DNA of 64,000 bases from Candidatus Falkowbacteria bacterium (GTDB taxonomy: Bacteria > Patescibacteriota > Patescibacteriia > Patescibacteriales > WJLG01). The notes below the pieces were generated by a model. The model saw only the letters and a list, made by a program, of their open reading frames with translations. It was not told the origin of the DNA and did no database searches. The stretch spans positions 98,903 to 162,902 of the forward strand of contig CAVVFV010000012.1 in NCBI GenBank assembly GCA_963747695.1, in the 5' to 3' direction. The translations under genes and the position numbers were made by a program. Of this stretch, positions 6,698 through 62,098 are shown piece after piece (position 1 is the first letter of the stretch; every line of letters begins with the position of its first letter).

Positions 6698-6717
6698 GCG
6701 TTCTGGTCGGCGAATGG

Positions 6718-7095
6718 CTAACGGGCGAATGAACAACTGCAGGGAATCCTGAAGCTGGATCTTGTTTTGGTGCACGGCTGGTGATTGAAAAGCCGCCTTA
6801 AGAGTTGGAAGGTGCCGAATTCGCTCTTCACAGTTATTCTTTTTTTCCGGCGGTAATTTTTTCCCACTACCATTCCGGTTTTGACGACGCAGATCATCGT
6901 TCCTCGTCGGACAGCCACAACTTCATAGAAGAAAGTCAGGCCGTAAATGAGGTCGGGCTTGATCAATTTTTCCGGAACGAGGTCGCCTCGGCAAAGAGCA
7001 ACGTCAACTGATAATTTTCCCGAAGGGAACGGGCGCACATCATCGTCATCGACCAATTGTCGATTTTCCGCCAAGAAAAAGGCGACTTGCGGCAT
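6718..7095 (-). CDS. Hypothetical protein (weak call)
   Basis: This is the only long ORF in the interval. The C-terminus is Cys/Arg-rich and looks non-genic, and no motif was recognised. Confidence 0.3.
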   Translation of the reverse strand: MPQVAFFLAENRQLVDDDDVRPFPSGKLSVDVALCRGDLVPEKLIKPDLIYGLTFFYEVVAVRRGTMICVVKTGMVVGKNYRRKKRITVKSEFGTFQLLRRLFNHQPCTKTRSSFRIPCSCSFAR

Positions 7096-7222
7096 AACAC
7101 CTCTTTTGAAAAGGTTGAGGACGGAAGCGATAAGAACATTCCTATCTTAATTTTATCGTATCGCCCAGGCTGATGTCAATCAATCCCGAAATACGAAATA
7201 CTAAATACCAAATACTAAATTT

Positions 7223-7786
7223 ATGCTTTTCGATCTATATCTTATTGTTTCGCTGATAATTTGCCTAGCCTTGGCAATCTTTATCATAACTTTCGGAATC
7301 CCGATCTTTACCGGCGCGCCTTTCGCCGTTTCCTCCCGGTATAAGATCAAGAAGATGATGCCGCTGCTTAAGGAAGCGGCGGCAAGCTTGCCATCCGCAG
7401 CCTTGGCGAAGGATGGGCAAAATTTGTCCGCGGTCGATTTGGGTTCAGGCGACGGACGGATTGTCATCGCTTTGGCCGAGAACGGGTTTATTGCTTCCGG
7501 TCTAGAAATCAATCCTTGCCTGGTCTGGTATTCGCGCTGGAAGATTAAATTTAAAAAGCTTAGTGATCGAGCTGTGATCAAGAGGGTTAATTATTGGCAA
7601 GAAGATTTTTCCAAATACGATGTCGTGGTTCTATTCGGAGTTTTTTATATTATGGACAAATTAGAAAAGAAATTATTAAGCGAACTGAAGCCCGGCGCGA
7701 TCGTCGTCTGCAATCACTTTTTTTTCCCGACCTGGCCGCCCGTGAAGCAGGAAGGCGATATTTATCTTTATCGCCAGGATAATTGA
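7223..7786 (+). CDS. Class I SAM-dependent methyltransferase with N-terminal TM helix
   Basis: SAM-binding motif I VDLGSGDGRIVIALAENG and a post-I acidic residue (GLEIN). The N-terminus is hydrophobic. Confidence 0.7.
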   Translation: MLFDLYLIVSLIICLALAIFIITFGIPIFTGAPFAVSSRYKIKKMMPLLKEAAASLPSAALAKDGQNLSAVDLGSGDGRIVIALAENGFIASGLEINPCLVWYSRWKIKFKKLSDRAVIKRVNYWQEDFSKYDVVVLFGVFYIMDKLEKKLLSELKPGAIVVCNHFFFPTWPPVKQEGDIYLYRQDN

Positions 7787-44944: not shown

Positions 44945-47479
44945 GTGGCAAAGATATTGAATTCTATGAATTACGGTGAAAATTTGCCAAATATATATTC
45001 CGCGTCGGTAATCAGCGCCGGCGTCGATTGGCCGTTGATTATATTTTATGTCGCAATCGCGGCTATTTTTTTAATCATCGTTTTGATTGCCTTGCGGATA
45101 ATCCGGAATTATTTTGTCCGCAATCAATATTTGAACCAGACGGTTTTCCTGGTCAGGTTGCCTAAGGAGAAACCGGGCGAAGAGAGAAAAGACCAGACGG
45201 TGCAGGAGCTTCGCGAAGAAATCGCGGTGGGCGAGGCGATTTTCAACAGTATCGGCGGCGCGCGCGCCCAGCGCGGGTTGAATGCCTGGCTGTTCGGGCG
45301 GCAGGATCATTTTTCCTTCGAGATCGTCGCGTCGGAAAAGAAAATATATTTTTACGTGGTGACGCCGGCCGATTCGGCGCGCTATATCGAACAGCAGATC
45401 CACGCCCATTATCCGGACGCGCTGGTCGAGGAAGTGCCGGATTATAATATTTTCAATCCCTCGGCTAAAGTTTTCGCCAGCAGCTTGAAGACGAAAAAGA
45501 GTTTCGTCTTTCCTTTGCGCACTTACAATAAGATGGAGATCGACCCGATGAATTCGCTGGTCAATGTGATGAGCAAATTGGACAAGGACGAATCGATGGC
45601 GGTGCAGGTTCTGGTGCGCAGCGCCAAAGGTTCCTGGCACCGGAAAATTTCTCAGGTGGTGCGGGAAGTTAATCGCGGCAAAAAAGTCGGGGAGGCGGTC
45701 GGTTCCGGCGTTTTCAATCAGATCCTTAATTTTCTGGGCTCGGTGGCCCGGGAAGCCAAGCCGAAAAGCGAACGGGAAAAAGAGAATAAAGAACCTAAGA
45801 AGCTGTCGCAGATGGAAGAGGAAATGCTCAAGAGCATGGAAGAAAAAAATTCCAAGGCCGGATTGGATGTGAATATCCGCATCATCGTCAGCACTAAAAA
45901 TGAACATAACGGCAAAGCGTATCTTTTGAATATGACGAATGCGATGGCTGAATATAATTATTACGAATACGGCAACATTTTCAAGGTCAAGAATTATCAA
46001 TTCATCAACGCGGTCGTCCGCGATTTCATTTATCGCCGTTTCAATCCCGGCATCGGTTTTATCCTGAATATCGAAGAGCTGGATAGCATCTATCATTTTC
46101 CTTTGAAGAACTTGGAAACGCCGAATATCGCCTGGCTGACAGCGAGACAAGCGCCGGCTCCGTCGAACATCCCCACCGAGGGAATTGTTCTGGGAAAAAA
46201 TTTATATCGCGGCGTGGAAAAGGAGATCCGTATCAAGCGGGCGGATCGGCGCCGGCATATGTACATCATCGGCAAGTCCGGCGTAGGCAAATCCGTCCTG
46301 ATCGCCGGTTTGGCCATCCAGGATATTTTGAATGGCGAAGGCGTCTGCGTGATGGATCCGCACGGCGATCTGATCGAAGATATCTTGCGCCGCATCCCTC
46401 CGGAACGCGCCGAAGACGTGATTTTATTTTCGCCGGCCGATATCGAACGGCCGATGGGTTTGAATCTGATCGAGTTCGACGCCCGCTATCCGGAACAGAA
46501 AACTTTCGTCATCAATGAATTGATCAAGATTTTTGATAAATTATACGATTTGAAAACCACCGGCGGGCCGATGTTCGAACAATATATGCGCAATGCGTTA
46601 TTGCTGATTATGGCGCATGTCGAATCCGGTTCGACTCTGATGGAAGTGCCCAGAGTCTTATCGGATCCGGATTTCCGCAAACTGAAGATCCAGAATTGCC
46701 CGGATATCACTGTGGTCGATTTTTGGCAGAAACAGGCGGAAAAAGCCGGCGGCGAAGCGGCTTTGGCCAATATCGTGCCCTACATCACCTCCAAACTGAC
46801 TCAATTCGTTTCCAATGATACGATGCGCCCGATCATTGGCCAGCAGAACAGCTCGTTCAATTTGCGCGACGTGATGGATAAGCAGAAAATCCTTTTAGTC
46901 GATTTGTCCAAAGGCAAGATCGGCGATATGAATGCCTATCTTTTGGGTTTGATCATCGTGGGTAAAATTCTGATGGCCGCTTTGTCCCGCGCCGATATGC
47001 CGGATTCGGCCCGCAAAGATTTTTATCTGTATATCGATGAATTTCAAAATTTCACCACCGATTCCATTAACACAATTTTATCAGAAGCTCGCAAGTATGG
47101 CCTAAATCTGATCATCGCTCACCAATATCTCGGCCAGCTGGGCAAAGAAGGGGAGGCGATCCGTTCGGCGGTTTTTGGTAACGTCGGAAGCTGGTTCACC
47201 TTCAAGATCGGCACGGAAGACGCGGAAATACTCGCGAAGGAATATTCCCCGGTTTTCAATGAATATGATCTCATCAACATCGAAGCTTTCACCGCCTATG
47301 TTAAATTATTGATTGATAATACCGCGTCTCGGCCGTTCTCGATGAAAACAATGTGGCCGCTGCCGGGCCAGGATCGGCCCGAAGTCGCTGATAAGATAAA
47401 AACCCTAAGCCGCCTGAAATATGGCCGCGACCGCTCGCTGATCGAGGCGGAAATCAACAAGAGATTGACTTTATTTTAA
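44945..47479 (+). CDS. Type IV secretion coupling-protein-like (TraD/VirD4/TraG-type) ATPase
   Basis: An N-terminal TM helix, Walker A IIGKSGVGKS, Walker B-like LYIDEFQNF, and RKYGLNLIIAHQYLGQL. The start is uncertain (GTG 44945 or ATG 44966). Confidence 0.75.
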   Translation: MAKILNSMNYGENLPNIYSASVISAGVDWPLIIFYVAIAAIFLIIVLIALRIIRNYFVRNQYLNQTVFLVRLPKEKPGEERKDQTVQELREEIAVGEAIFNSIGGARAQRGLNAWLFGRQDHFSFEIVASEKKIYFYVVTPADSARYIEQQIHAHYPDALVEEVPDYNIFNPSAKVFASSLKTKKSFVFPLRTYNKMEIDPMNSLVNVMSKLDKDESMAVQVLVRSAKGSWHRKISQVVREVNRGKKVGEAVGSGVFNQILNFLGSVAREAKPKSEREKENKEPKKLSQMEEEMLKSMEEKNSKAGLDVNIRIIVSTKNEHNGKAYLLNMTNAMAEYNYYEYGNIFKVKNYQFINAVVRDFIYRRFNPGIGFILNIEELDSIYHFPLKNLETPNIAWLTARQAPAPSNIPTEGIVLGKNLYRGVEKEIRIKRADRRRHMYIIGKSGVGKSVLIAGLAIQDILNGEGVCVMDPHGDLIEDILRRIPPERAEDVILFSPADIERPMGLNLIEFDARYPEQKTFVINELIKIFDKLYDLKTTGGPMFEQYMRNALLLIMAHVESGSTLMEVPRVLSDPDFRKLKIQNCPDITVVDFWQKQAEKAGGEAALANIVPYITSKLTQFVSNDTMRPIIGQQNSSFNLRDVMDKQKILLVDLSKGKIGDMNAYLLGLIIVGKILMAALSRADMPDSARKDFYLYIDEFQNFTTDSINTILSEARKYGLNLIIAHQYLGQLGKEGEAIRSAVFGNVGSWFTFKIGTEDAEILAKEYSPVFNEYDLINIEAFTAYVKLLIDNTASRPFSMKTMWPLPGQDRPEVADKIKTLSRLKYGRDRSLIEAEINKRLTLF

Positions 47480-50335: not shown

Positions 50336-50406
50336 TGGGAGATCGTCCAACGGTAGGACGTCGCGCTCTGGACGCGGTAATCATGGTTCGAATCCATGTC
50401 TCCCAG
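50336..50406 (+). tRNA. tRNA-Gln (anticodon CTG)
   Basis: Hand-folded cloverleaf. The acceptor stem is TGGGAGA/TCTCCCA (U1-A72). The D-stem is GTCC/GGAC and the anticodon stem is TCGCG/CGCGG. The anticodon loop is CT-CTG-GA (anticodon at 50368-50370). The T-arm is CATGG-TTCGAAT-CCATG and the discriminator is G. CCA is not encoded. Confidence 0.9.
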
Positions 50407-51895
50407 CACTAATCATACTAAGTCCTTTTTCAGGAAAAATTTTTAACGCTTCGCGAAGCGAAGCGTAAGGTTTGATGGGCACAAATTTGAGTTTTTGATT
50501 TATCAAAAACAAGTTCGAGCCGAAGATTTTTTGGAGATGTGCCTTTTTGGCACATAAATCGTCATTGGTTGCTGAAAGAGCAAGCAATGACGCATCTTTT
50601 ATCCATTCCCGCATCGGTTCGAGCCAACTTCCGGCGTTCTGTTCCAAACGGGCTATTTGCTCCTCAAGTGACCTCTTTTCGGAGATGACAGCCTTCCGGC
50701 GGTTTAGGTAGTCTTCCCGCTCGATATCCTGGGCTACATAGAGGTCGGTGAGCCGCTCGAGGTTGCGGGAAAGGCCTTGTGCCTTCTCCTGCAAGCCCTG
50801 GACGAACGTCGCCGTCTTCTGCTTAGATTCTTGCTCATCTTCATTTGTTCTCCTCGTGAGCTCATTAGCTATCTCTTCCGGCATCGAAAATTCAGATAAT
50901 AGATTTGATAGCTCGGAAACTAAAATTTCTTCTCTGACATACGATTGAGAACATTTGATCGTCGTTGATTTCTTGGTACAGCGATAATAGGTATGAGATT
51001 TTTGGACTTCGGCGGTGATCATTTTTCCGCACTCGCCGCAATGCAATAAACCGCATAAAGGTTTGGGGTCATTTCCGGTTCTCTGCGGATGGCCTCGCTC
51101 AATCAAAACATTTTGGACTTTATCCCATAACCGCTTCTCAATGAGCGGTTTATGCTTGCCCTCATAAATATCGCCGTTATATCGGAATACGCCGTAATAG
51201 AAAGGATTGGAGAGAATAAATTTAGCTCTGTCCTTATGTAGCGGTTTATCGCCCGTGCTTTTAACACCTTGTTTAAAAAGAAAGTTAGAAATATCCTCGA
51301 GGCGATAATTGCCCTTGGAGTAGAGCTCAAAAGCGGCGCGGATGGTTTTAGACTTCCGTCGGTCAACGACAATCGTTTTTGCCCGCACATCGTTTAGATA
51401 GCCGGTCGGAGCCGTGCCGGGAAAGTGTCCTAGTCGCGCCTTCTGCCTAAGTCCGCGGCTCGTATTGGAGCTCAAGTCGCGAATGAATTGGTTGGCCATC
51501 CCCAATTCAACGGCCATTAGTAGAACGTTGTCGTTAGGGCGATAGCTTTTGTCCGGCATTAGGATATGCTCGATTATGCTCTGCTGGATCATCCAGCTTA
51601 TTTGTCCGCCGTCCACCGGATTGCGCGCCAAACGGTCAAGTTTCCAGCAGACTATCCCTTTGGCTTCGCCCTTGTTAATCCGTTTCAGCATATCGTTAAA
51701 GACCGGACGGCCCGGAGCTTTGGCCGATTGTTTTTCCACGAATTCGCGGACGATCTCGATATGTTCGTCCTTGGCCAGCTCGCGCAGTTCGACGAGCTGA
51801 GCTTCGATGGACAAAACTTGTTTGTCCTCGACATCGGTCGATTTGCGGGCGTAAAGAAAATAGTTATTTACCGAAGGTATATTGTTTGTTATCAT
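50381..51895 (-). CDS. Large serine recombinase (resolvase domain, recombinase domain, zinc ribbon, coiled coil)
   Basis: N-terminal YARKSTDVEDKQVLSIEAQ (catalytic Ser context) and WKLDRLARN. The zinc ribbon is CGECGKMITAEV...YYRC, followed by a long C-terminal coiled coil. The last 26 nt overlap tRNA-Gln on the opposite strand. Confidence 0.9.
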   Translation of the reverse strand: MITNNIPSVNNYFLYARKSTDVEDKQVLSIEAQLVELRELAKDEHIEIVREFVEKQSAKAPGRPVFNDMLKRINKGEAKGIVCWKLDRLARNPVDGGQISWMIQQSIIEHILMPDKSYRPNDNVLLMAVELGMANQFIRDLSSNTSRGLRQKARLGHFPGTAPTGYLNDVRAKTIVVDRRKSKTIRAAFELYSKGNYRLEDISNFLFKQGVKSTGDKPLHKDRAKFILSNPFYYGVFRYNGDIYEGKHKPLIEKRLWDKVQNVLIERGHPQRTGNDPKPLCGLLHCGECGKMITAEVQKSHTYYRCTKKSTTIKCSQSYVREEILVSELSNLLSEFSMPEEIANELTRRTNEDEQESKQKTATFVQGLQEKAQGLSRNLERLTDLYVAQDIEREDYLNRRKAVISEKRSLEEQIARLEQNAGSWLEPMREWIKDASLLALSATNDDLCAKKAHLQKIFGSNLFLINQKLKFVPIKPYASLREALKIFPEKGLSMISAGRHGFEP

Positions 51896-52162: not shown

Positions 52163-52782
52163 TAATTTATGAAAAAAACAAGAAAAAAAATTCTCGTGAT
52201 GATTTTTTTAGTATTTTATTTTGCGTTTTCTGCTGCAACGGCCTTGGCGGATGGCGCGTTAGTGGAATACGATCCTTATAATGCAGTAAATTATGATCTG
52301 AAAGCGGAAAATAGCCAGCAGGCGGTAATTAGCTATGAAAAAGGCGTGCAGAAAATGGTTTTGGCCGTTGACTTCGCGAGCCACTTCGAATAGAAATGAC
52401 GTTTGGATTTTTCCGGTTCCCGCCAGTGCCGATAAAATTAAAATGGATATTGTTTCCAACATTCCTTCTCTGGCCGGCCAAAATCTTTCCGATTCGGTTT
52501 CCGCTAATCTTTACTATGTTAAGAAAGATATTGAATCGACTCAGGTCTACCCATTAGTTTATCGGATTATTTCCAGAATTATAACCTTAAACAGTAATCA
52601 GTCATCAGACGAGTTAGGGTTGGGGGCTGTCGATAACGGAACATCAGCCAATCCTGTGCCAGATGTTATTGTCCAGAGCCATTTAGAAAAGGGCGGCATG
52701 GTTTCCGAAATTATTTCCGCCAAGACGGCCGATGGTCTGGCGAAGTATTTTAAAGACAAGGGGTTAAATTTTGACAATAAAT

Positions 52783-53835
52783 TGTTACAATTGCAGCAAT
52801 TAGGGTTACCTTTCGGGTTTCGTTCCAGTGTAAAATGGTGGCAGGATTATTTAACTAATAATTTTGCCCAACCATATGCGCCGAAACACCCAAGAGGCTC
52901 TAATTGCCATGAAAAAAGAAATTTTAGACTCTTGCATTGCCAAAACCATGAAATGCAAGGACGGAGCTAAGCTGCTCGATTTTCACCCGAAATACTTTTC
53001 CCGTCTGAAAAAAGAATATTTGAAATACGGCGTAGCCGCTCTGATTCCCAAACCGCCGGGTCCCAAAAATGGGTTCATCGCTAAAAATCGGACGTCGGAA
53101 ACACTGGAAAATCTGGTCTGTGAATTGGCGCGGAATAATACTTCTTCCGGTCCGACCGAATTGGCCGATCAACTGAAAGATAATTACGGATTTGAAATTA
53201 ATCAATCAACTATTTTTAGAATTCTGCGGCGGAAGAAAATCAGATATTGCCGCGATTACCAGCCGATCATCAAACAAAAACCGCAATTATACTGCCTGGA
53301 AACGCCAGGCGAAGAATTACAGCTGGATGCCTGCCATCCGTTCGGACGCGGCCGGCAACTGGTCTGTTTCGACGCCATTGATGATTGTTCCCGTTATGTC
53401 TGCGCCAAATTGTATGACCGAGAAAATGCCGCCAACGCCATCGAATTCATTAAATATTTAATTCAACACGCCCCATTCACGATTAAAAGGATTAGAATTG
53501 ATAATCGCAGCAAGAACAAAATTCGCGAATTCTGTGAATCGATTGGCATCGAAGTTATCGTCAACGACGCCCACGAGCCGAAACAGAATGGCAAGATTGA
53601 ACGATTTCATCGCACTATTAAACGCTCATTTTTTTGGAAATATTGCGGCTTCTACGACGACCAAGAACTATTGGATTATCGCTTGCAACAATGGCTGGCT
53701 TATTACAACGAGAAACGCCGTCATGGCGGCTATGGCATGAACCGCTTAACGCCAATCCAGAAAATCGCGGCAGCTTTGTTTAATTCTTTAAATATCATTC
53801 CTCGCAAAAAGGTAACCTTGACTATGCAATCGTAC
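52783..53835 (+). mobile_element. IS481-like insertion sequence
   Basis: About 1.05 kb with a single HTH plus DDE (rve) ORF. The imperfect terminal IRs are TGTTACAATTGCAG... and ...(rc) TGTACGATTGCAT, both followed by GGTTACCTTT. It is flanked by a 16-17-bp direct repeat AAATTTTGACAATAAAT (52766-52782 and 53836-53852). Confidence 0.75.
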
Positions 53836-53844
53836 AAATTTTGA
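52864..53844 (+). CDS. IS481-family DDE transposase (integrase-core/rve domain)
   Basis: An N-terminal HTH and the DDE contexts LQLDACH, IRIDNRS and PKQNGKIERFHRTIK. The likely true start is ATG 52876 or 52909. Confidence 0.85.
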   Translation: MPNHMRRNTQEALIAMKKEILDSCIAKTMKCKDGAKLLDFHPKYFSRLKKEYLKYGVAALIPKPPGPKNGFIAKNRTSETLENLVCELARNNTSSGPTELADQLKDNYGFEINQSTIFRILRRKKIRYCRDYQPIIKQKPQLYCLETPGEELQLDACHPFGRGRQLVCFDAIDDCSRYVCAKLYDRENAANAIEFIKYLIQHAPFTIKRIRIDNRSKNKIREFCESIGIEVIVNDAHEPKQNGKIERFHRTIKRSFFWKYCGFYDDQELLDYRLQQWLAYYNEKRRHGGYGMNRLTPIQKIAAALFNSLNIIPRKKVTLTMQSYKF

Positions 53845-55170
53845 CAATAAATCAATTCCTGCCCTGCAAAAGTATTTTGGCCGCGACTATTCCTTTGTCG
53901 CTTCTTGGATAAACACTGGCGCTAATGTTTCGTCAACTGCTGCTGCGATTACCGCCAGCTCGCCCGTGCAAAACAACCCGAATTTGGTGACGGCCGATTT
54001 CATTGATAAGGCTTTTTCTTTTTACTATGGTCAGAGGGGAAGATTCCCAAAGTTTGCAGAGCTTCGTGATCAGATCCTGGATAAGCAACAGAGCGAACCT
54101 CTCCCGCCAGGCCAATTTCATAATGATGCTTATTTTCAGGCACGGCAGGAGGCAATTGATCAAGCGTTGGCTGATGATATAAATCATGATAATACTATAG
54201 TAGCCGATCAGCTCGGCGGACAAAAAATTACCGTACCGACGCAAAAAATGATCGATGATTATGTTAATGGAGAAAGCATTAGCGTCCTCCCTCAAGGTGG
54301 TCAAAGCACCTTTAATGGCCGCGGAATTTATCTTTCTTTTCCGACCGATAAAATTTATTTTCCATTAATGTTGACCAGCGTTTATGGAGATAAAATAATT
54401 CCCGCTGAAATAAGAGTAATCTCGCCGGTCGCTCCGAAAATTTTCGGCAATATCCGCATGTTTGCTAAAACTTCCTACTATTCTAATGCTTCTTTGGTTT
54501 TTCGGGATGCGGCGTTGCAGGATTTTTATTCCGGCAGTAAAACCGATTTTATTTACACAAAGATCGACATCAACGCGCCAGCTAAAAATTTAACTAATGA
54601 TCTTTGGATCAGTCCCAATCCTTCATTCCAATATAATTTAATTTCCCTGTTTAATAATTCCTTGTTCTCTTTCTTTATTATTTTAGTGTTATCTTCTTTG
54701 CTGTCAGGAATCATGGCTGGCTGGTTGCTCTCCAGGTTTGCGTGGAAAAGAACGTTGCGTTTTGCCCTAATCGGTTTTTTTAATGTTTTTAGTTTGATTG
54801 GCTTAATTATCGCCGCCAAGTTTCTATTTGTCGATTTTAAGAATGATGGCTATCCTCAATGGGCTTTTTTGCCCCGCGATTTCCGGAGATGGCTTTTCGT
54901 TCCGTTTTTTTCCGCATTATTTATGGGCTGTACTTGGCTAATCATTGAGCTTATAAAAATAATTATTTAATAAAAAATTATATCATTCTGTAATGAATAA
55001 AATTATGAAAAATTTAGTAATAGAGCAGTTTGAACAAGGAATTATAGAACAGGTATGCAGTATCATGGAAGGCGGAGAAAAGGCTTTTAATTAGAGAAAG
55101 AGTAAATATTAGATTTCATTGCGACATTCAACGATGAAATAACATAAAGTTTTTTATCAGAAAGATCATC

Positions 55171-55347
55171 CTCCAAAAAATCTTCGGCTCGAACTTGTTT
55201 TTGATAAATCAAAAACTAAAATTTGTGCCCATCAAACCTTACGCTTCGCTTCGCGAAGCGTTAAAAATTTTTCCTGAAAAAGGGCTTAGTATTATCTGTG
55301 CTCATCTCTATGACCTCGCTCGAAGGTATTTTTTAGATAATTCTTGA
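55171..55347 (+). pseudogene. Detached inverted copy of the recombinase 3' end, carrying the presumed native C-terminus
   Basis: It encodes LQKIFGSNLFLINQKLKFVPIKPYASLREALKIFPEKGLSIICAHLYDLARRYFLDNS*. The first 115 nt or so are about 98% identical to the reverse complement of 50408-50536. No recombinase-like sequence lies upstream of 55171. Confidence 0.7.
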
Positions 55348-55737
55348 CCCAAAACATGGCCGTCTAACCCCCTCCGGCTGCGGCCATTTTGCCCTGTATG
55401 CGCTCAAGGCCAAGGAGGGCCAACTAGTTGAACAGCTATATGAACAGCTGTATGAACGACTAGTTGAACCCGGGTTCATATAGCAGACACTGTTTTAAGA
55501 AGTTATTTTAGCCAAATTCTAATTTTCAAAAATGAGTGACTATTACTCCGACAACGGAATCAACTGAACGACAAATATATATTATTACTACACTAAGATA
55601 TGACGACAAACTACTAATTACAATTACGACTTAAACCAATATTATATTAAATACCAATATTAATTACTGATATTATTTAATTTCAGATACTTCTTTCCAA
55701 CTACTGGCCAAAACCAAGAAAAAAAATGGGGAATGAG
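55171..55737. repeat. Inverted repeat, left copy (recombinase tail, attP-like core and 438-bp arm)
   Basis: 55171-55299 is the reverse complement of 50408-50536. 55300-55737 is the reverse complement of 61613-62048, with scattered mismatches. It contains the TGAAC array at 55429-55483. Confidence 0.85.
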
Positions 55738-56089
55738 GGGGGAACCCATCGCCCCAACATAAGTCGGGTGATGGGTTGGACATATTTTAAATTATAAATA
55801 CTCACGTATAAAAAAATCCATTTTAATTTTCAGCCTTTGCCTATTGGCTAGTATTTTTCTCAGATCGCTGAATTCGAATGTCACTTTCGCCGTAGAGACT
55901 ATTTTTATCGGATGACCTGAGTGGCTGGTCATTGTTAGTCAAAGAGGCTAGCAATAGTATATCCTCATTTTTGTATGAGAAGATACTATTGCACTTGCGC
56001 TTATTCATAAATATTCACGATGATTTTAGTTGATTTCATCTAATATTAGTAATTTTTACAAATTTCAAGCAATTATTATGTAATAGGAC

Positions 56090-56119
56090 TTGACAAAATA
56101 TAAATACACGATGTATTAT
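56090..56119 (+). promoter_or_regulatory. Sigma70-like promoter for the first cassette operon
   Basis: TTGACA (56090-95), an 18-nt spacer and TATTAT (56114-19), lying 37 nt upstream of ATG 56156. Confidence 0.4.
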
Positions 56120-56155
56120 GTAAATAGACAATACACTTACATAAAATTTAAAAAT

Positions 56156-56371
56156 ATGAGTGAAACAAGATATGAAAGATTTAAAAGGCTAGCAGAGGCC
56201 AGGACGAATATAATTATACAGAGAATTAAAATCCTCGGTAATTGCTCGAATAGGAGTTCATATGATTATACTTCCGAAGATATCGATAAAATATTTAATG
56301 CCATTTCGAAGTATTTGAAAGATACAAGGGCAAAGTTTTCATTTCCTGGAGAACGGAAGTTTAAGTTATGA
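56156..56371 (+). CDS. Small (71-aa) helical protein, first gene of the cassette
   Basis: Start placed at MSETRYERFKRLAEARTN because the longer ORF start overlaps the promoter-like motif. The stop overlaps the next start (ATGA), suggesting translational coupling. Confidence 0.55.
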   Translation: MSETRYERFKRLAEARTNIIIQRIKILGNCSNRSSYDYTSEDIDKIFNAISKYLKDTRAKFSFPGERKFKL

Positions 56372-57831
56372 TTATGAATAATTACGACTCAGGAATCGAA
56401 GAGGTTATCGGTTCTGTTATATCTTTTTTTAATGTAGATAGAGATTTGTTGTTTGGAAATTCCAGAAAAGCAGAAATTGTAGAGGCCAGACATGTATTAG
56501 CCTACTGTTTAAGAAATAAATTTAGACTATCATTCCCAGCAATAGGAGAAATCTTTAACAGGGATCACACCTCAATTATGCATGCATGCGAAAACGCTTG
56601 CATAATTATTGAACGAAATATAAAGTTAAAAGTTTTTATTGATAATTTGATAAATTCAGGGGACAGTGAATATAAAGATATTAGTGAAGTAGAGGGTGAA
56701 GATGTTGGTAAGGTGGTAAGCGAAGATATAAAAACAACTAATAACCCGGAAGAGTTGAAGAAATATTTAACATTTAAACGTGAGTTGGAAGATAAAGAGC
56801 ATGAAAGGAATATGACGGAACTAAGGAAGAACAGAGAGGGTAAAATTTCAAATGCAAAAGCCGAATATGCAAAAGCAGTGATCAATGCTAAAAATGAATA
56901 TGAAAACAACTCTATTAAATTAATAGAAGGAAGAGCTAAAAATATAAGAGAACATAGAAGTGCGATGTTTTGGCTCAAGATTGGTAGGTATTCAGAGGCG
57001 AATGAGTATCTGAGTCCCAAAAAAGAACTTTTAGAAAATAACGATTTCAAAAAGGATATTGTAAATTTCTTGCCTAAATTTAAGACCGAAGTTAAAGAGC
57101 TTGTTTTTCCGATCGAATTTAATAAAGAGTATCTTAGAAATTGCTTTGCAGACTTGGATGACAGATCGAAAAATATTCTTATTAAAAGATATGGTTTTGA
57201 TGATGAAAAAACATCAACACTGGAAGAGATTGCGGTAATTGAAAAAATATCGAGGGAAAGAGTGCGCCAAATTTTGCAAACAGGTATAAATAAAATTTAT
57301 TTTAATAATTGTGGCGGGTTGAGACAGGTTGTTAATTCGGTTGCGGGGAAAATATTAAAAGAAGATTTAGTATTTATTGATAAGTGCTTGAATGAATTTT
57401 TTATATTTAATAAGGAAGATGAGAGTCTGCTCAGAAGACTGATTTTAGTGATAATGCTATCCGTAAAATGGATTAAGGAATTTGATTTTTCTGGCTATAA
57501 ATTTTTCATTAATTCATCTAACGAAAAGAAAGTAATTGAACAAATTGATCATATTAAATTGCTAATCGGAAAGATTGAAGCGGCGATGCCTGATATGATA
57601 TTAGATCGTTGGCAATATGTTCTAAATAATTTAAAGTTGTACGAATTCTTTCAAGATAAAAAACATTTATTGGATGATGCATTTTTAAGAGCCTGCTATG
57701 ATAATTTTTTGTTTGAAAGCGAGATAGTTGTTTATAAAACAGAGGTTCTTAAAAAGTATAAGTCATATAACGATGCTGATCAGGAGCAGGTTGAAGGTGT
57801 CCCCAACGAATATAATGTTTTTTTCGAGTAG
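56368..57831 (+). CDS. Dual-HTH protein: DnaA-domain-IV-like HTH, coiled coil, sigma70-region-4-like HTH, unknown C-terminal domain
   Basis: The N-terminus LLFGNSRKAEIVEARHVLAYCLRNKFRLSFPAIGEIFNRDHTSIMHACEN matches the DnaA C-terminal DNA-binding signature (R..R...AMYL.R.....S...IG..F..RDHTTV.HA). Residues 270-300 or so, LIKRYGFDDEKTSTLEEIAVIEKISRERVRQILQTGINKI, match sigma70 region 4.2. Confidence 0.7.
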   Translation: MIMNNYDSGIEEVIGSVISFFNVDRDLLFGNSRKAEIVEARHVLAYCLRNKFRLSFPAIGEIFNRDHTSIMHACENACIIIERNIKLKVFIDNLINSGDSEYKDISEVEGEDVGKVVSEDIKTTNNPEELKKYLTFKRELEDKEHERNMTELRKNREGKISNAKAEYAKAVINAKNEYENNSIKLIEGRAKNIREHRSAMFWLKIGRYSEANEYLSPKKELLENNDFKKDIVNFLPKFKTEVKELVFPIEFNKEYLRNCFADLDDRSKNILIKRYGFDDEKTSTLEEIAVIEKISRERVRQILQTGINKIYFNNCGGLRQVVNSVAGKILKEDLVFIDKCLNEFFIFNKEDESLLRRLILVIMLSVKWIKEFDFSGYKFFINSSNEKKVIEQIDHIKLLIGKIEAAMPDMILDRWQYVLNNLKLYEFFQDKKHLLDDAFLRACYDNFLFESEIVVYKTEVLKKYKSYNDADQEQVEGVPNEYNVFFE

Positions 57832-57854: not shown

Positions 57855-59357
57855 ATGGGAAAAACAGTTTACAATATAACACCAGACATTTCTCTGATGC
57901 CCAAACTCGGAAAATCTGGCTATTCTTCTCCGCAGGCAATCGCTGAGTTGGTGGACAATTCTATTGATGCCAGAATAGAGGGCAAAGTGTTAAACGTGGT
58001 AATTAAGATAGAGAAAAATGTAATCAGTATAGCTGATAATGGTTCTGGAATGGATGGAACACAATTAGCTGATGCTATGACACTTGCACACTCAAATAAG
58101 GAGAATAAATTGGGCGAGTTTGGCCTTGGCTTAAAAACCGCATGTAATAGTTTGGGGGAGAAATTTGAAATTATAACCTCTCCGGCAAACGATAGCAAAC
58201 AGTATAGGTTTGTATACGATCAAAAGGAGTGGATGGGTAAACAAAAGTGGGAGATCGATATAGAGTCCTTAAAGGCGGAAAGCGATATGCATTTTACCGT
58301 AATTAAAATTGAGAACTTGTCTAAAAATATTCCTGGACTGCCGGATGTTTTAAAAAGAGATATGGAAAGAAGATTCGCCCCTTTTATAGAAAAAGGAGAG
58401 GTTACTATTAAAGTGAACGGGAAAGAGTGCAAGCCTGGCAAGCACGATTTGATTGAAGGATCCAGAAAAGAATTTAACCTCGATGTTGTAAGTGGAAAAT
58501 TTAAAGGTGAAAAAATATATGGCTGGTATGGGTTGCTTAAAGAAGGCTCAAATAAGGGTCTTTATGGTTTTCATACTTATCGAAGAGGGAGAATGATTAC
58601 GACTTATGACAAGATGGTTATCGGTGAACATCCTACAATTTCAAGAATTATAGGTGAGATAAACATGGATTTTGTCTCCGTGACTCACAATAAGAAAGAT
58701 TTTATAAGAGAAAGTGATGAGTTCGCAATGGCAGAGGAATTATTAAAAGAAGAGTTAAAGAATATTCTAAAAGAGGCTAAAAAGAAGTCTGGCCAAGACA
58801 AGATTACGAAAAACGTAATGAACGATTTAGACGTTTGGAAAGAAAAAATCAGTAAGGCGGTAATGGAATCACAGGATTTAAAATGTTATACGTCTCAAGT
58901 TGATATTAAAACGGGAATGGTCAAGGATGATGACGGTAAGGACGAGGAGGTTCTTGGTGAAAAAAGAGAAAGCAAGAAGGGTGGACACGGAACCGTAAAA
59001 CCAAAATCGACAGATGCGGTAAGGGTGCCAAAAAAGGAGAATGAAAATATAAAAAAGATAATTAAGGTAAAGGGTAAAAAATTTGAATTCGATCACGAGT
59101 TCTCTTCTCTGGGTCAAGATTCGGCATGGAAACAATATGAGTTTGACAAGGAAAAAAGAAAAATTGTTGTTTATACAAATATTGATTTTCCAGCATTCTC
59201 AACAACAAAAGACACGGCCTTCTACGCCGTTTTGCATATTGCAGAGTCAATTGCAGAGATCATGGTTACTGAGGTTGGGGAAGAGATAGGTAATTTGCAA
59301 GAGATAAAAGAAATTATTTTAAAAACAGCGTCAATTCTTAAAAACCAAATTGATTAA
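57855..59357 (+). CDS. GHKL-superfamily (MORC/HATPase_c_3-type) ATPase
   Basis: The Bergerat-fold motifs are the N box AIAELVDNSIDA, the G1 box ISIADNGSGMD and the G2 box LGEFGLGLKTA. These are followed by a YRRGRMI segment, a Lys/Glu-rich linker and a C-terminal globular domain. Confidence 0.8.
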   Translation: MGKTVYNITPDISLMPKLGKSGYSSPQAIAELVDNSIDARIEGKVLNVVIKIEKNVISIADNGSGMDGTQLADAMTLAHSNKENKLGEFGLGLKTACNSLGEKFEIITSPANDSKQYRFVYDQKEWMGKQKWEIDIESLKAESDMHFTVIKIENLSKNIPGLPDVLKRDMERRFAPFIEKGEVTIKVNGKECKPGKHDLIEGSRKEFNLDVVSGKFKGEKIYGWYGLLKEGSNKGLYGFHTYRRGRMITTYDKMVIGEHPTISRIIGEINMDFVSVTHNKKDFIRESDEFAMAEELLKEELKNILKEAKKKSGQDKITKNVMNDLDVWKEKISKAVMESQDLKCYTSQVDIKTGMVKDDDGKDEEVLGEKRESKKGGHGTVKPKSTDAVRVPKKENENIKKIIKVKGKKFEFDHEFSSLGQDSAWKQYEFDKEKRKIVVYTNIDFPAFSTTKDTAFYAVLHIAESIAEIMVTEVGEEIGNLQEIKEIILKTASILKNQID

Positions 59358-59733
59358 TTAAACTCAGGAGTACGAAGAAAATTTTGGTTTTATGGACAAA
59401 ATAGAAGTCTGTGAAAAAATAAAAAAAGGTACACGTAAAATTACTGTGATTTTCGAGCACTGTTTAGTTAGTCTGGGATAGGTGTTAAAGTTAACTCGTC
59501 GAGACTTTTATTAACGGGTAATTTAGTTAATGTGAAAGGGTAATTTATTTGATTGATAACTCTGTGACGTAGGGATCCACACTCGATTCCCCGGCAAATT
59601 AGCTGGAATTATATACTAGAAAGGAATAATGGTAGGATTGCTAGATTCAGAAAAATTAGTTCCCAATAGCTCCGCAGCGGCTTTGTTACATAAACTTATA
59701 ACTTGACGTTTACAATAATAAAAATATTAAAAA

Positions 59734-60933
59734 ATGGATACTAAAACTTTTTCAGAGTTATTAAAAGACGATGTTATCGAACAAATACAAAAAGTAGATT
59801 TAAAATCTAAAGATTGGGACGCGTGGTTTTTAAAATGGAAAGATCCAAGCACAAGAACTCAAATTATTTGGATTCTTAGGGATTTAGCAGAGAAGAAAGA
59901 ATATGTAGATAAAATCGTTGCAATAGCGGACATGTATTCGAAAGACCCTAATCCTGATGGAGATTTTGACGACTTAAATAAAAAAATAGAGGCCGGAGAA
60001 GATATCCGTTCTATATATACAGTCAGAGGAACTTTGCCGTGGCTTTTGCAAACATTAATAGCCACTTTTAAAACAGAGTATTACCCAGATATTTTAAAAA
60101 TAACAGAAAGATTAATTGAAGATCAGGTATATTATGTTAGGCAGCAGGCTACCGTTCCTCTTTCTCTTTTTGTAGCCAACCTTCGTGCCAAAAAAAACGT
60201 TGATGGAACAGATTTTAATTTTACTGATAAAGACAAGAGCAGTGCATATAGTCTCTCGTTTAAGATGCTTAGAGAGAATTGCAATCTCCCGCGAGTATTA
60301 GAATACGTGTCTAATGTATTTGATAAGTTAAGAAATATAACAGCGGAAGAGGCAAAAGAAGTGCTAACAACTTTTTGCTATAATGAAAAAAAAATTAATC
60401 CTGAATACCTAACTAGCCACGTAGTTCCTCTAGTAATTTTCTTCGCAGAGTTTAGAAAAAAAAACGAAGCAGGTTTTGATAATTATTGGTTCCAGGTTTT
60501 TTTAGAAAATTTTATTAAAGATGCCAAAGATTCTTGCCTAAGAAGTACATTAATCTGGCATATGTGGCGGGTGATTGAAGAAGATGCGTCTAATTATCAA
60601 TTGGTTAAAAAGTATATACCATTGCTTTTTGAAAATATTTCCGATCATGAGCCTGTGGGGCAGATGGAATTTTTAGTAAATGAAGTTTTAAAAGCTGATT
60701 CCAAAGACGGTATTGAACTATATATAACATTCCTTAATTATTTAGATAAAATGAATTTTTCTAGTTCTTTTAAGCTTTGGCTTACCCAAACAGAGGAAAC
60801 ATTGGAACGTATCAAAAAGATAGATTCTTCAAAAGTATTAGAGATTTTACCCTTACTGAAAGGATTACGTTTAAAAGGTTGTTATGTCGGCGATGAAAAA
60901 ACAATTTTTCCCGAGGAATCGGCTGATAAATGA
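59734..60933 (+). CDS. All-alpha HEAT/ARM-like repeat protein (function unknown)
   Basis: A 399-aa protein with a helical-repeat appearance (e.g. VRGTLPWLLQTLIATF, YYVRQQATVPLSLFVANL) and no catalytic motif recognised. It is preceded by a 376-bp non-coding spacer. Confidence 0.6.
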   Translation: MDTKTFSELLKDDVIEQIQKVDLKSKDWDAWFLKWKDPSTRTQIIWILRDLAEKKEYVDKIVAIADMYSKDPNPDGDFDDLNKKIEAGEDIRSIYTVRGTLPWLLQTLIATFKTEYYPDILKITERLIEDQVYYVRQQATVPLSLFVANLRAKKNVDGTDFNFTDKDKSSAYSLSFKMLRENCNLPRVLEYVSNVFDKLRNITAEEAKEVLTTFCYNEKKINPEYLTSHVVPLVIFFAEFRKKNEAGFDNYWFQVFLENFIKDAKDSCLRSTLIWHMWRVIEEDASNYQLVKKYIPLLFENISDHEPVGQMEFLVNEVLKADSKDGIELYITFLNYLDKMNFSSSFKLWLTQTEETLERIKKIDSSKVLEILPLLKGLRLKGCYVGDEKTIFPEESADK

Positions 60934-60937
60934 TTTT

Positions 60938-61435
60938 ATGAATGAACTGGATAAGTTAAAGACAGAGATTAAAAATGATTTGATGAATATTAAAGAATTT
61001 TTTGAGGCATCTCTTAATTCATATGTTTCAAGTGCTACAAGTGGTAATACCGGAACTCAACCAGTCGCAAATGATCCGATTCAAGGAAGAAAGAAACATT
61101 TTTTAGAAAACTATATGTTAGTTTTTCCCAGCCTTCTTTATAGGACCATCCTTAAATTAGGAAAAAGAATAGAGAAAATTGATCAGGGGTTGTTCACTAT
61201 AAATTTTAAATACACCAATCCAAGAAATAATTTGTGTTATATAGGTCCAAAAGGCAGAGAAGTCGAAGAGATAAGGGGATTGAGAAATTATTTTTTTCAT
61301 GGCGACGATATGCCTAATAAGGGTTTTGCTGATGCGTTTAAAAATTACCCACCAGACAAACCGATTGAACTTGAAGGAAAGGATGTGACGAGGCTTATAA
61401 AAAATTGTGAAGATGCTATAAACAAAATTATTTAA
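60938..61435 (+). CDS. Minimal HEPN-like protein (putative RNase effector)
   Basis: Start placed at ATG 60938, 4 nt after the upstream stop. R-x4-H motif with the typical polar second residue: EEIRGLRNYFFHGDD (AGA codon at 61283). The predicted helical protein is 165 aa, consistent with a minimal HEPN domain. Confidence 0.55.
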   Translation: MNELDKLKTEIKNDLMNIKEFFEASLNSYVSSATSGNTGTQPVANDPIQGRKKHFLENYMLVFPSLLYRTILKLGKRIEKIDQGLFTINFKYTNPRNNLCYIGPKGREVEEIRGLRNYFFHGDDMPNKGFADAFKNYPPDKPIELEGKDVTRLIKNCEDAINKII

Positions 61436-61612
61436 TTGAAATGGGTCTGACCTCTGCTTGATGAAGCAAAGGAATTGAACAGCTAGCCATATAAATAACC
61501 AAAAAACAGCTATATCCTAGCCGCTTATCAACCCCCGTCGTCAATCATCCCGTTAGCCCGTTAATAACCCCGTAATTGTTTTGCCCATCCTGTTTTCACC
61601 CAGTCTTTTCCT

Positions 61613-62048
61613 CTCATTCCCCATTTTTTTTCTTGGTTTTGGCCAGTAGTTGGAAAGAAGTATCTGAAATTAAAGAATATCAGTAATTAGTATTGGTAGT
61701 TAATATAATAATTGGTTTAAGTCTTAATTATAATTAGTAGTTTGTCGTAGTATCTTAGTGTAGTAATAATATATATTTGTCGTTCAGTTGATTCCGTTGT
61801 CGGAGTAATAGTCACTCATTTTTAAAATTATATTTGGCTAAAATAACTTCTAAAAACAGTGTCTGCTATATGAACCCGGGTTCAACTAGTCGTTCATACA
61901 GCTGTTCATATAGTTGTTCAACTAGTTGGCCATCCTTGGCCTTGAGCGCATACAGGGCAAAAGGCCGCAGCCGAAGGGGGTAGACCGGCCATGTTTTGGG
62001 TCAAGAATTATCTAAAAAATACCTTCGAGCGAGGTCATAGAGATGAGC
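61613..62048. repeat. Inverted repeat, right copy (its outer end is attR)
   Basis: The reverse complement of 55300-55737. It carries the TGAAC array at 61867-61927 and ends ...GGTCATAGAGATGAGC at the tRNA terminator hairpin. Confidence 0.85.
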
Positions 62049-62098
62049 TTGTGAAATAAAAATAAGGCGCGCCTAGCGCCTTATTTTTATTTCACAAG
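62048..62098 (+). terminator. Perfect 23-bp-stem hairpin; presumed native terminator of tRNA-Gln (B' arm of attB)
   Basis: CTTGTGAAATAAAAATAAGGCGC-GCCTA-GCGCCTTATTTTTATTTCACAAG. Confidence 0.7.

Follow-up and report, generated by a model that had tools for sequence, protein, structure and literature searches.

HEPN RNases are the working part of Cas13, Csm6, RNase L and many abortive infection (Abi) and toxin-antitoxin systems. Here we describe two adjacent genes found in a stretch of 64,000 nucleotides (hereafter, the window) from contig CAVVFV010000012.1 of a Candidatus Falkowbacteria bacterium. The second gene codes for a small protein of 165 amino acids (aa) that is likely to be a minimal member of the HEPN superfamily, and the first for a protein predicted to fold as an ARM/HEAT-type alpha-solenoid. 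In this genome they are the last two genes of a group of five, which we will refer to as the cassette.

By sequence, the best relative among the described families is RiboL-PSP-HEPN (PF18735), which is in turn distantly related to AbiD/AbiF (PMC3710099). It has the R-N-x3-H motif in common with the small protein, and both are associated with bacterial conflict. However, the pair studied here has neither an L-PSP fusion nor a ParB operon, its partner being an ARM/HEAT solenoid, and the resemblance consists of sub-threshold matches of relatives, the window protein itself having none. By architecture, the type II/VII toxin-antitoxin systems of the HEPN-MNT kind (HepT/MntA) are similar, since they also have a minimal Rx4H HEPN protein as the putative toxin of a two-gene operon; in our case the putative regulator is located upstream and is tightly coupled. 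The partner differs, as it is an alpha-solenoid of ca. 400 aa without a nucleotidyltransferase domain rather than a minimal nucleotidyltransferase, and control by AMPylation is thus not expected. No sequence match between the small protein family and the DUF86/HEPN models of Pfam was seen. Combinations of HEPN with helical repeats have already been reported, namely AbiU2-Sel1, KEN-ankyrin (RNase L), LA2681/C6orf70-TPR and AbiJ-NTD4-HEAT (PMC3710099). In repeat-regulated nucleases such as RNase L, AbiU2, LA2681 and C6orf70, a repeat or alpha-solenoid module is likewise coupled to an HEPN RNase, whereas here the two are separate polypeptides and both the type of repeat (ARM/HEAT) and the HEPN family are different. 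Finally, two other proteins of the window cassette, one with a sigma-70 region 4 and one a MORC-like ATPase, weakly resemble MzaA and MzaB of the restriction-linked MZA (MzaABCDE) and paraMORC systems. We found no description of a HEAT/ARM plus HEPN two-gene system in the literature searched. HEPN effectors are a familiar theme; what appears to be new in this locus is a HEPN family, which we consider credible, and the kind of partner to which it is obligately tied.

A small protein family and its invariant residues

The open reading frame (ORF) of the small protein starts at an ATG at 60938 and ends with a TAA at 61433-61435. As the initial annotation had indicated, it begins exactly 4 nt after the stop codon of the upstream gene (TGA, 60931-60933) and encodes a protein of 165 aa that is mostly helical in its AlphaFold2 (AF2) model. 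The deposited gene model (P0001) is longer, 183 aa from an ATG at 60884, and overlaps the upstream gene by 50 nt. The closest homologues begin with MNVELDKLK.. and MDDLNKLK.., and these N-termini line up with the first methionine of the 165-aa version, so that the ATG at 60938 is the better start and the deposited call is probably over-extended by 18 codons. Residues 108 to 124 of the 165-aa protein read EVEEIRGLRNYFFHGDD, with the R116 codon at 61283-61285 and the H121 codon at 61298-61300, ca. 70% along the protein and therefore in the C-terminal third where the motif had been placed.

Taken alone, this motif is weak evidence, because R-x4-6-H is common in the ORFs of the window. Among those of at least 150 aa, the frequency per 165 aa is 0.45 for the loose form and 0.045 for the strict one, R[NDH]xxxH. 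A single occurrence is not beyond chance; its invariance across 26 homologues is. Recovering these homologues was not straightforward. A word-indexed search with the small protein retrieved only itself, and an exhaustive phmmer search of 1.84 billion representatives gave two relatives. The upstream protein, in turn, had 27 homologues, corresponding to 27 clusters among 5.8 billion. Because the direct searches yielded so little, the family of the small protein was assembled by synteny through the upstream gene. The contigs carrying homologues of the HEAT-like protein were collected and a hidden Markov model (HMM) was built from the first proteins encoded downstream. With this HMM, 22 loci were seen to encode a homologue of the small protein directly after the HEAT-like gene; in a 23rd (L021) the small gene is cut by the end of the contig exactly at an ..INELR motif. 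The resulting alignment (A5) contains 26 sequences of the small protein, 13 to 47% identical to the one in the window. The metagenome-assembled genomes that carry the family are labelled as Saccharibacteria, Patescibacteria, Bdellovibrionales or plain “bacterium.” Collections of plasmids, phages and viral contigs, scanned by tblastn and for patterns, yielded neither of the two genes. Most likely, the small protein is a founding member of a rare and so far unannotated minimal family of the HEPN superfamily, for which none of Pfam, NCBIfam, PADLOC and PHROGs has an entry.

In spite of this divergence, three columns of A5 are invariant, and only these three: E111, R116 and H121. The arginine and the histidine, whose conservation the initial annotation had proposed to examine by aligning homologues, are kept at the x4 spacing in all 26 sequences, and the residue after the arginine is N in 21, H in three and D in two. 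In the L002 member, the motif histidine is the only one in the entire protein. The canonical HEPN motif is R-phi-xxxH, with phi being N, D or H (bioRxiv 10.1101/760058), and the family motif matches it. A catalytic role has been attributed to the R, the H and the polar residue that follows the R, and the motif is located at the C-terminal end of a helix (PMC3710099). What had been described in one sequence as R-x4-6-H with an N after the arginine is, as R-N-x3-H, the defining invariant motif of the family. It should be noted that the invariant glutamate (E111) sits in helix 3 instead of helix 2.

The association of the two genes is equally constant. Every locus with a close homologue of the HEAT-like protein and readable downstream sequence has a member of the small protein family directly next to it. 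After removal of duplicates there are 17 distinct pairs, in which the gap between both genes (using homology-supported starts) goes from -1 to +12 nt, so that the tight coupling noticed in the window holds across the family. The pairwise identities of the two proteins correlate (r = 0.77). Hence, the two genes are an obligate, co-inherited and tightly coupled unit. Their surroundings vary from locus to locus and include Hypoth_Ymh, which is itself a HEPN family (PMC3710099), methyltransferases, DUF4357/GIY-YIG, DUF2726, HNH_5, Mrr_cat, AbiEii, a Cthe_2314 HEPN and Ltp; the neighbours in 10 loci, counting that of the window, also comprise large serine recombinases. In one locus (L010) nothing but the pair lies between lexA and a MatE gene. 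The pair thus resides in defence or mobile islands. In L028 (2998-4700), the closest relative of the HEAT-like protein (63% identity) is truncated to 318 aa and stop codons interrupt the HEPN-like gene beyond codon 84, i.e., both genes have decayed, which we take as a sign that the pair is dispensable.

We also looked for a conserved third gene and rejected it: the upstream neighbours in L001, L002, L004 and L014 are mutually unrelated, and those of L001 and L030 are 79% identical, but these two loci are one lineage. In L002, a protein of 258 aa without Pfam match (6708-7484), located two genes upstream of the pair with a 79-aa ORF in between, carries the string ..LYEIRNNRNVGHLGGD.., possibly a further HEPN-like motif that has escaped annotation.

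The upstream protein had been called HEAT-like, and at the level of the fold this was correct. It has no match in Pfam (including HEAT and Arm), in PADLOC or among PDB sequences, and its AF2 model is of high quality (predicted local distance difference test, pLDDT, 93; predicted template modelling score, pTM, 0.88). Foldseek against the PDB retrieved designed armadillo proteins, importin-alpha, the PP2A A subunit, CAND1 and SF3b (E values from 8.5e-4 to 1e-2, probability 1.00), and the modelled structure makes us confident that the fold of the partner is that of an ARM/HEAT solenoid. In its sequence 36 positions are invariant, and the mean pairwise identity is 0.41, versus 0.27 for the small protein. 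Two distant homologues of the solenoid (24-26% identity, HMM E values ca. 1e-26) are followed by something other than the HEPN-like gene. In L024 (1345-1977) it is an NYN/LabA-like protein matching PDB 2qip (E 6e-4), which we take to be a LabA/NYN-type protein, and in L025 (1921-2673) a protein with PD-(D/E)XK/Cas4-like motifs (VVDYK, CxxC pairs), judged by its motifs alone. These two short contigs hint at a reusable solenoid with exchangeable nuclease effectors.

Probable HEPN membership and competing readings

Each member of the family was scanned singly against Pfam, and the only families matched by more than one member were HEPN families. HEPN_RiboL-PSP (PF18735) was matched by six members, with E values from 4.2e-5 to 0.075 (4.2e-5, 5.9e-5, 5.3e-4 and 2.8e-3 for the four best) and a coverage from helix 2 to beyond the motif. 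HEPN_Cthe2314 was matched by four (best E 0.017) and HEPN_MAE_28990 by two (best E 0.0026). As a noise control, single-member scans of NCBIfam gave unrelated single matches only. With PADLOC, the RTasHEPN model (listed under DRT) was weakly matched by two members, and an equally weak and unrelated match to PtuA (an AAA ATPase) also appeared in two. The AF2 model of the small protein, derived from an 11-sequence alignment, is mediocre (pLDDT 69.6, pTM 0.65). It consists of a helix at residues 3-35, another at 47-81 that extends as far as residue 90, an inserted hairpin at 91-102, a helix at 107-121, a loop, and a last helix at 147-164, with the R..H motif at the C-terminal end of the 107-121 helix. 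The HEPN fold is a four-helix up-down bundle in which the motif lies at the end of helix 3 or where the loop to helix 4 begins and an insert is often found between helices 2 and 3; the order of the predicted helices fits this topology. The four closest relatives (L001, L010, P0029 and P0030) carry an insert of ca. 35 residues between helices 2 and 3, at the position of residues ca. 91-105 of the window protein, in which that insert is not present. The sub-branch of the window protein as a whole also replaces the Trp-Glu found in helix 2 of the main branch.

Several results weigh against a HEPN assignment. The window protein has no match in Pfam, PADLOC or PHROGs and a single noise match in NCBIfam, and phmmer against the PDB sequences gave only noise, mostly beta-2-microglobulin (E ca. 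0.3-1). All Pfam HEPN matches of its relatives are below the gathering threshold (24.0 bits for the best, versus 28.4). No HEPN fold came up when the model was searched with Foldseek in PDB and BFVD (best E 0.16), and the A3 profile found no HEPN chain among the PDB sequences. When A5 was compared by hhalign with the single Cthe_2314 HEPN and Ymh proteins encoded in the neighbourhoods, the alignments were not significant (E ca. 0.4); the one with the Cthe_2314 HEPN protein placed R..H on R..H. Separately, a tblastn of a Cthe_2314 HEPN seed against plasmids, meant to provide a reference profile, gave no match. In many HEPN families, but not in all of them, helix 2 has a conserved acidic residue close to the active site. 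In the present family this column is E or D in 23 of the 26 members, but a leucine in the window protein, and all five members of its sub-branch are non-acidic at that column. On the side of the partner, a solenoid that is better conserved than the putative nuclease is not the pattern expected of a fast-evolving phage sensor or a typical antitoxin. What remains of the HEPN interpretation of the initial annotation is therefore uneven: the repeated weak matches of the relatives to HEPN Pfam families, and to no others, speak for it, and the structure comparison and the Pfam scan of the window protein do not. We still regard membership of the HEPN superfamily as likely from the sequence data, and catalytic competence of the window copy as somewhat less so.

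These results would also suit a small protein that is helical without being a HEPN RNase, for example an adaptor or a nucleotide- or ligand-binding solenoid subunit, with an E..R-phi-xxxH helix that is convergent or serves for binding. Besides the Foldseek result, the sub-threshold scores and the missing helix-2 acidic residue, the first two helices (33-35 residues) seem, in our judgement, long for a HEPN core, and HEPN-like domains that are not catalytic exist (PMC3710099). The HD-domain protein YhaM shares a similar local string (profile match, E 0.34); we discarded this match because the small protein shows no HD signature. Nevertheless, R and H are absolutely invariant at the HEPN spacing and phi is never other than N, H or D in proteins that have otherwise diverged strongly, the weak matches converge on three HEPN families only, the motif closes the third core helix, which is also its place in HEPN proteins, and neither an HD doublet nor any other alternative catalytic signature is seen. 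We consider this explanation unlikely, although it is the strongest of the three competitors. The conservation of the solenoid raises another one, in which the pair would be an accessory factor for RNA processing or turnover, the solenoid targeting a conserved cellular RNA or ribonucleoprotein and the HEPN protein acting as a processing nuclease similar to Las1. The solenoid, with its 36 invariant positions, is strongly conserved, more so than the nuclease, which suggests a conserved cellular ligand, and housekeeping HEPN RNases such as Las1 exist (bioRxiv 10.1101/760058). Yet a distribution as sparse as 27 clusters among 5.8 billion, the location in variable islands next to recombinases, restriction and Abi genes, the foreign GC content and the decayed copy in L028 make this the least probable of all.

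The other competitor concerns the extent of the system. The small protein had been presented as the likely effector of the cassette. On this reading the sigma/DnaA-HTH (helix-turn-helix) protein and the MORC-like ATPase would be sensor and motor, and HEAT plus HEPN the output, so that the five genes would resemble a variant of an Mza-like or paraMORC-HEPN system. The five genes are co-oriented in a low-GC segment inside inverted repeats of ca. 440 nt, suggesting that they arrived or move together here, the first two large proteins are weakly similar to MzaA and MzaB, and fusions of GHKL/paraMORC ATPases to Ymh HEPN domains are documented (PMC3710099); because of these fusions we retain it as a minor alternative. 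However, no MORC-like or sigma/DnaA-HTH gene was found beside the pair in any of the ca. 20 further distinct loci examined, including relatives 55-63% identical in the HEAT-like protein. Within the window, 376 nt separate the two groups of genes, versus -4 to +23 nt inside each group. Equivalents of MzaC, MzaD and MzaE are absent, and the Mza scores are far under the NCBIfam cut-offs. This part of the initial annotation was not borne out, and the probability of a five-gene system appears low. The association of the pair with the MORC and sigma genes is local to this genome, and since these genes are absent beside the pair elsewhere and the neighbours vary, the conserved functional unit is the two genes.

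Thus, we favour the reading, as a somewhat better bet than all others together, that the small protein is the HEPN RNase effector half of an autonomous HEAT plus HEPN two-gene module and not of a five-gene cassette. All characterised HEPN enzymes need two juxtaposed R-phi-xxxH motifs (bioRxiv 10.1101/760058). By analogy, two copies of the small protein would dimerise and their R116-N117-x3-H121 motifs, together with E111, would make up a composite, metal-independent RNase site that would cut RNA leaving 2',3'-cyclic phosphate ends. The solenoid, made from the same transcript just before the RNase, would bind it and control it, either by sequestering or by licensing it. The module would then most likely be a toxin-immunity or abortive-infection-type conflict system, a role with which the regulator-first order, the translational coupling, the island context and the doubly decayed copy of L028 fit. 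As for the ligand of the solenoid, its higher conservation argues for a conserved molecule and not for a fast-evolving phage protein. A more tentative extension, which we would not hold to be the probable outcome, is that the pair is a self-contained immune or abortive-infection system, mainly of Patescibacteria-like uncultivated bacteria, in which the conserved solenoid senses a conserved trigger and licenses the fast-evolving nuclease, and the solenoid may even be reusable with interchangeable nucleases.

The cassette in this genome and its borders

The coordinates of the pair and of the features around it are collected in Table 1. In this genome the five genes are a physical unit, because they are co-oriented, of low GC and bracketed by the inverted repeats. 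The GC content of the cassette is 30-37%, versus ca. 45% upstream, and points to a foreign origin. The MORC-like ATPase matches MzaB weakly (53 bits versus a cut-off of 850), the 487-aa protein has a weak match to MzaA, and the small ORF at the beginning of the cassette has only weak PHROG matches. The gap that precedes the two-gene module has no Rfam match, its predicted RNA fold is not unusual (z = -0.41), and it is not conserved at homologous loci. An RNA antitoxin in this gap was considered and dropped, given that there is neither an Rfam match nor an unusual fold.

Table 1. Location of the two-gene module, its predicted catalytic motif and the neighbouring features, in window coordinates
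Feature	Position	Strand	Evidence
Minimal HEPN-like protein gene, 165 aa, predicted metal-independent RNase effector	60938..61435	+	ORF call, homologue synteny, invariant residues
E111-x4-R116-N117-x3-H121 codons, predicted catalytic R-phi-xxxH plus invariant upstream Glu	61268..61300	+	Invariant alignment columns
4-nt spacer (TTTT) between the partner stop and the HEPN-like start codon	60934..60937	+	Read from sequence
ARM/HEAT-type alpha-solenoid (predicted), 399 aa, obligate partner, proposed regulator/sensor	59734..60933	+	27 homologues, AF2, Foldseek
376-nt intergenic gap from the MORC-like gene to the two-gene module; context, not part of the module	59358..59733	+	Sequence
MORC-like GHKL ATPase, 500 aa, found in a cassette with the pair in this genome only	57855..59357	+	HATPase_c_3 5.9e-20, Morc6_S5 2.5e-10
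DnaA C-terminal HTH plus sigma-70 region 4 protein, 487 aa, neighbour in this genome only	56368..57831	+	Bac_DnaA_C 1.3e-18, Sigma70_r4 1.1e-9
Small ORF, up to 93 aa, overlapping the start of the 487-aa gene by 4 nt	56090..56371	+	ORF list
Left arm of the ca. 440-nt inverted repeat	55301..55740	.	443 aligned nt, 95.7% identical to the reverse complement of 61610-62048
Right arm of the ca. 440-nt inverted repeat	61610..62048	.	Pairs with the left arm

The arms of the inverted repeat, ca. 5.87 kb apart, bracket the whole low-GC cassette, and no transposase is found between them. The segment could be a mobile element bounded by terminal inverted repeats or an invertible segment. Right after the right arm there is a perfect 23-nt hairpin (62048-62098). 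On the other side, 53 nt located immediately after a tRNA-Gln (50405-50457, including the CGCTTCGCGAAGCG palindrome) recur inverted at 55250-55302 with 92% identity; this second copy abuts exactly the outer end of the left arm, ..AGCA|C.. being common to the junctions. The same tRNA-Gln is overlapped at its 3' end by the gene of a large serine recombinase (50381-51895, minus strand). Taken together, this repeat and the recombinase suggest a history of att-site recombination or inversion. Between the recombinase and the cassette there is an insertion sequence (IS)-type transposase (rve/rve_3 with HTH_32, 52864-53844), and an exact direct repeat of 17 nt (52766-52782 and 53836-53852) has its second copy overlapping the 3' end of this gene. 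Further upstream, before dnaX, an 844-aa TrwB/VirD4-like type IV coupling protein (TrwB_AAD_bind, TraG-D_C; 44945-47479) hints at conjugative-element genes nearby.

Significance of the pair

As the family is absent from the databases mentioned above, current defence-system finders would miss the pair, and would do so in lineages whose genomes are tiny and in which only few such systems are recognised. If the small protein turned out to be inactive or not a HEPN protein, the two genes would be no more than a common pair of hypothetical genes in a mobile island. Under the reading that we favour, in which RNase activity and its control by the partner are inferred, the pair would add to the minimal HEPN families with new regulators, from which one can learn how nucleases of this type are held inactive and then turned on. 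Should the solenoid prove to be the controller, the ankyrin-KEN logic of RNase L would have a compact analogue here, made of two polypeptides.
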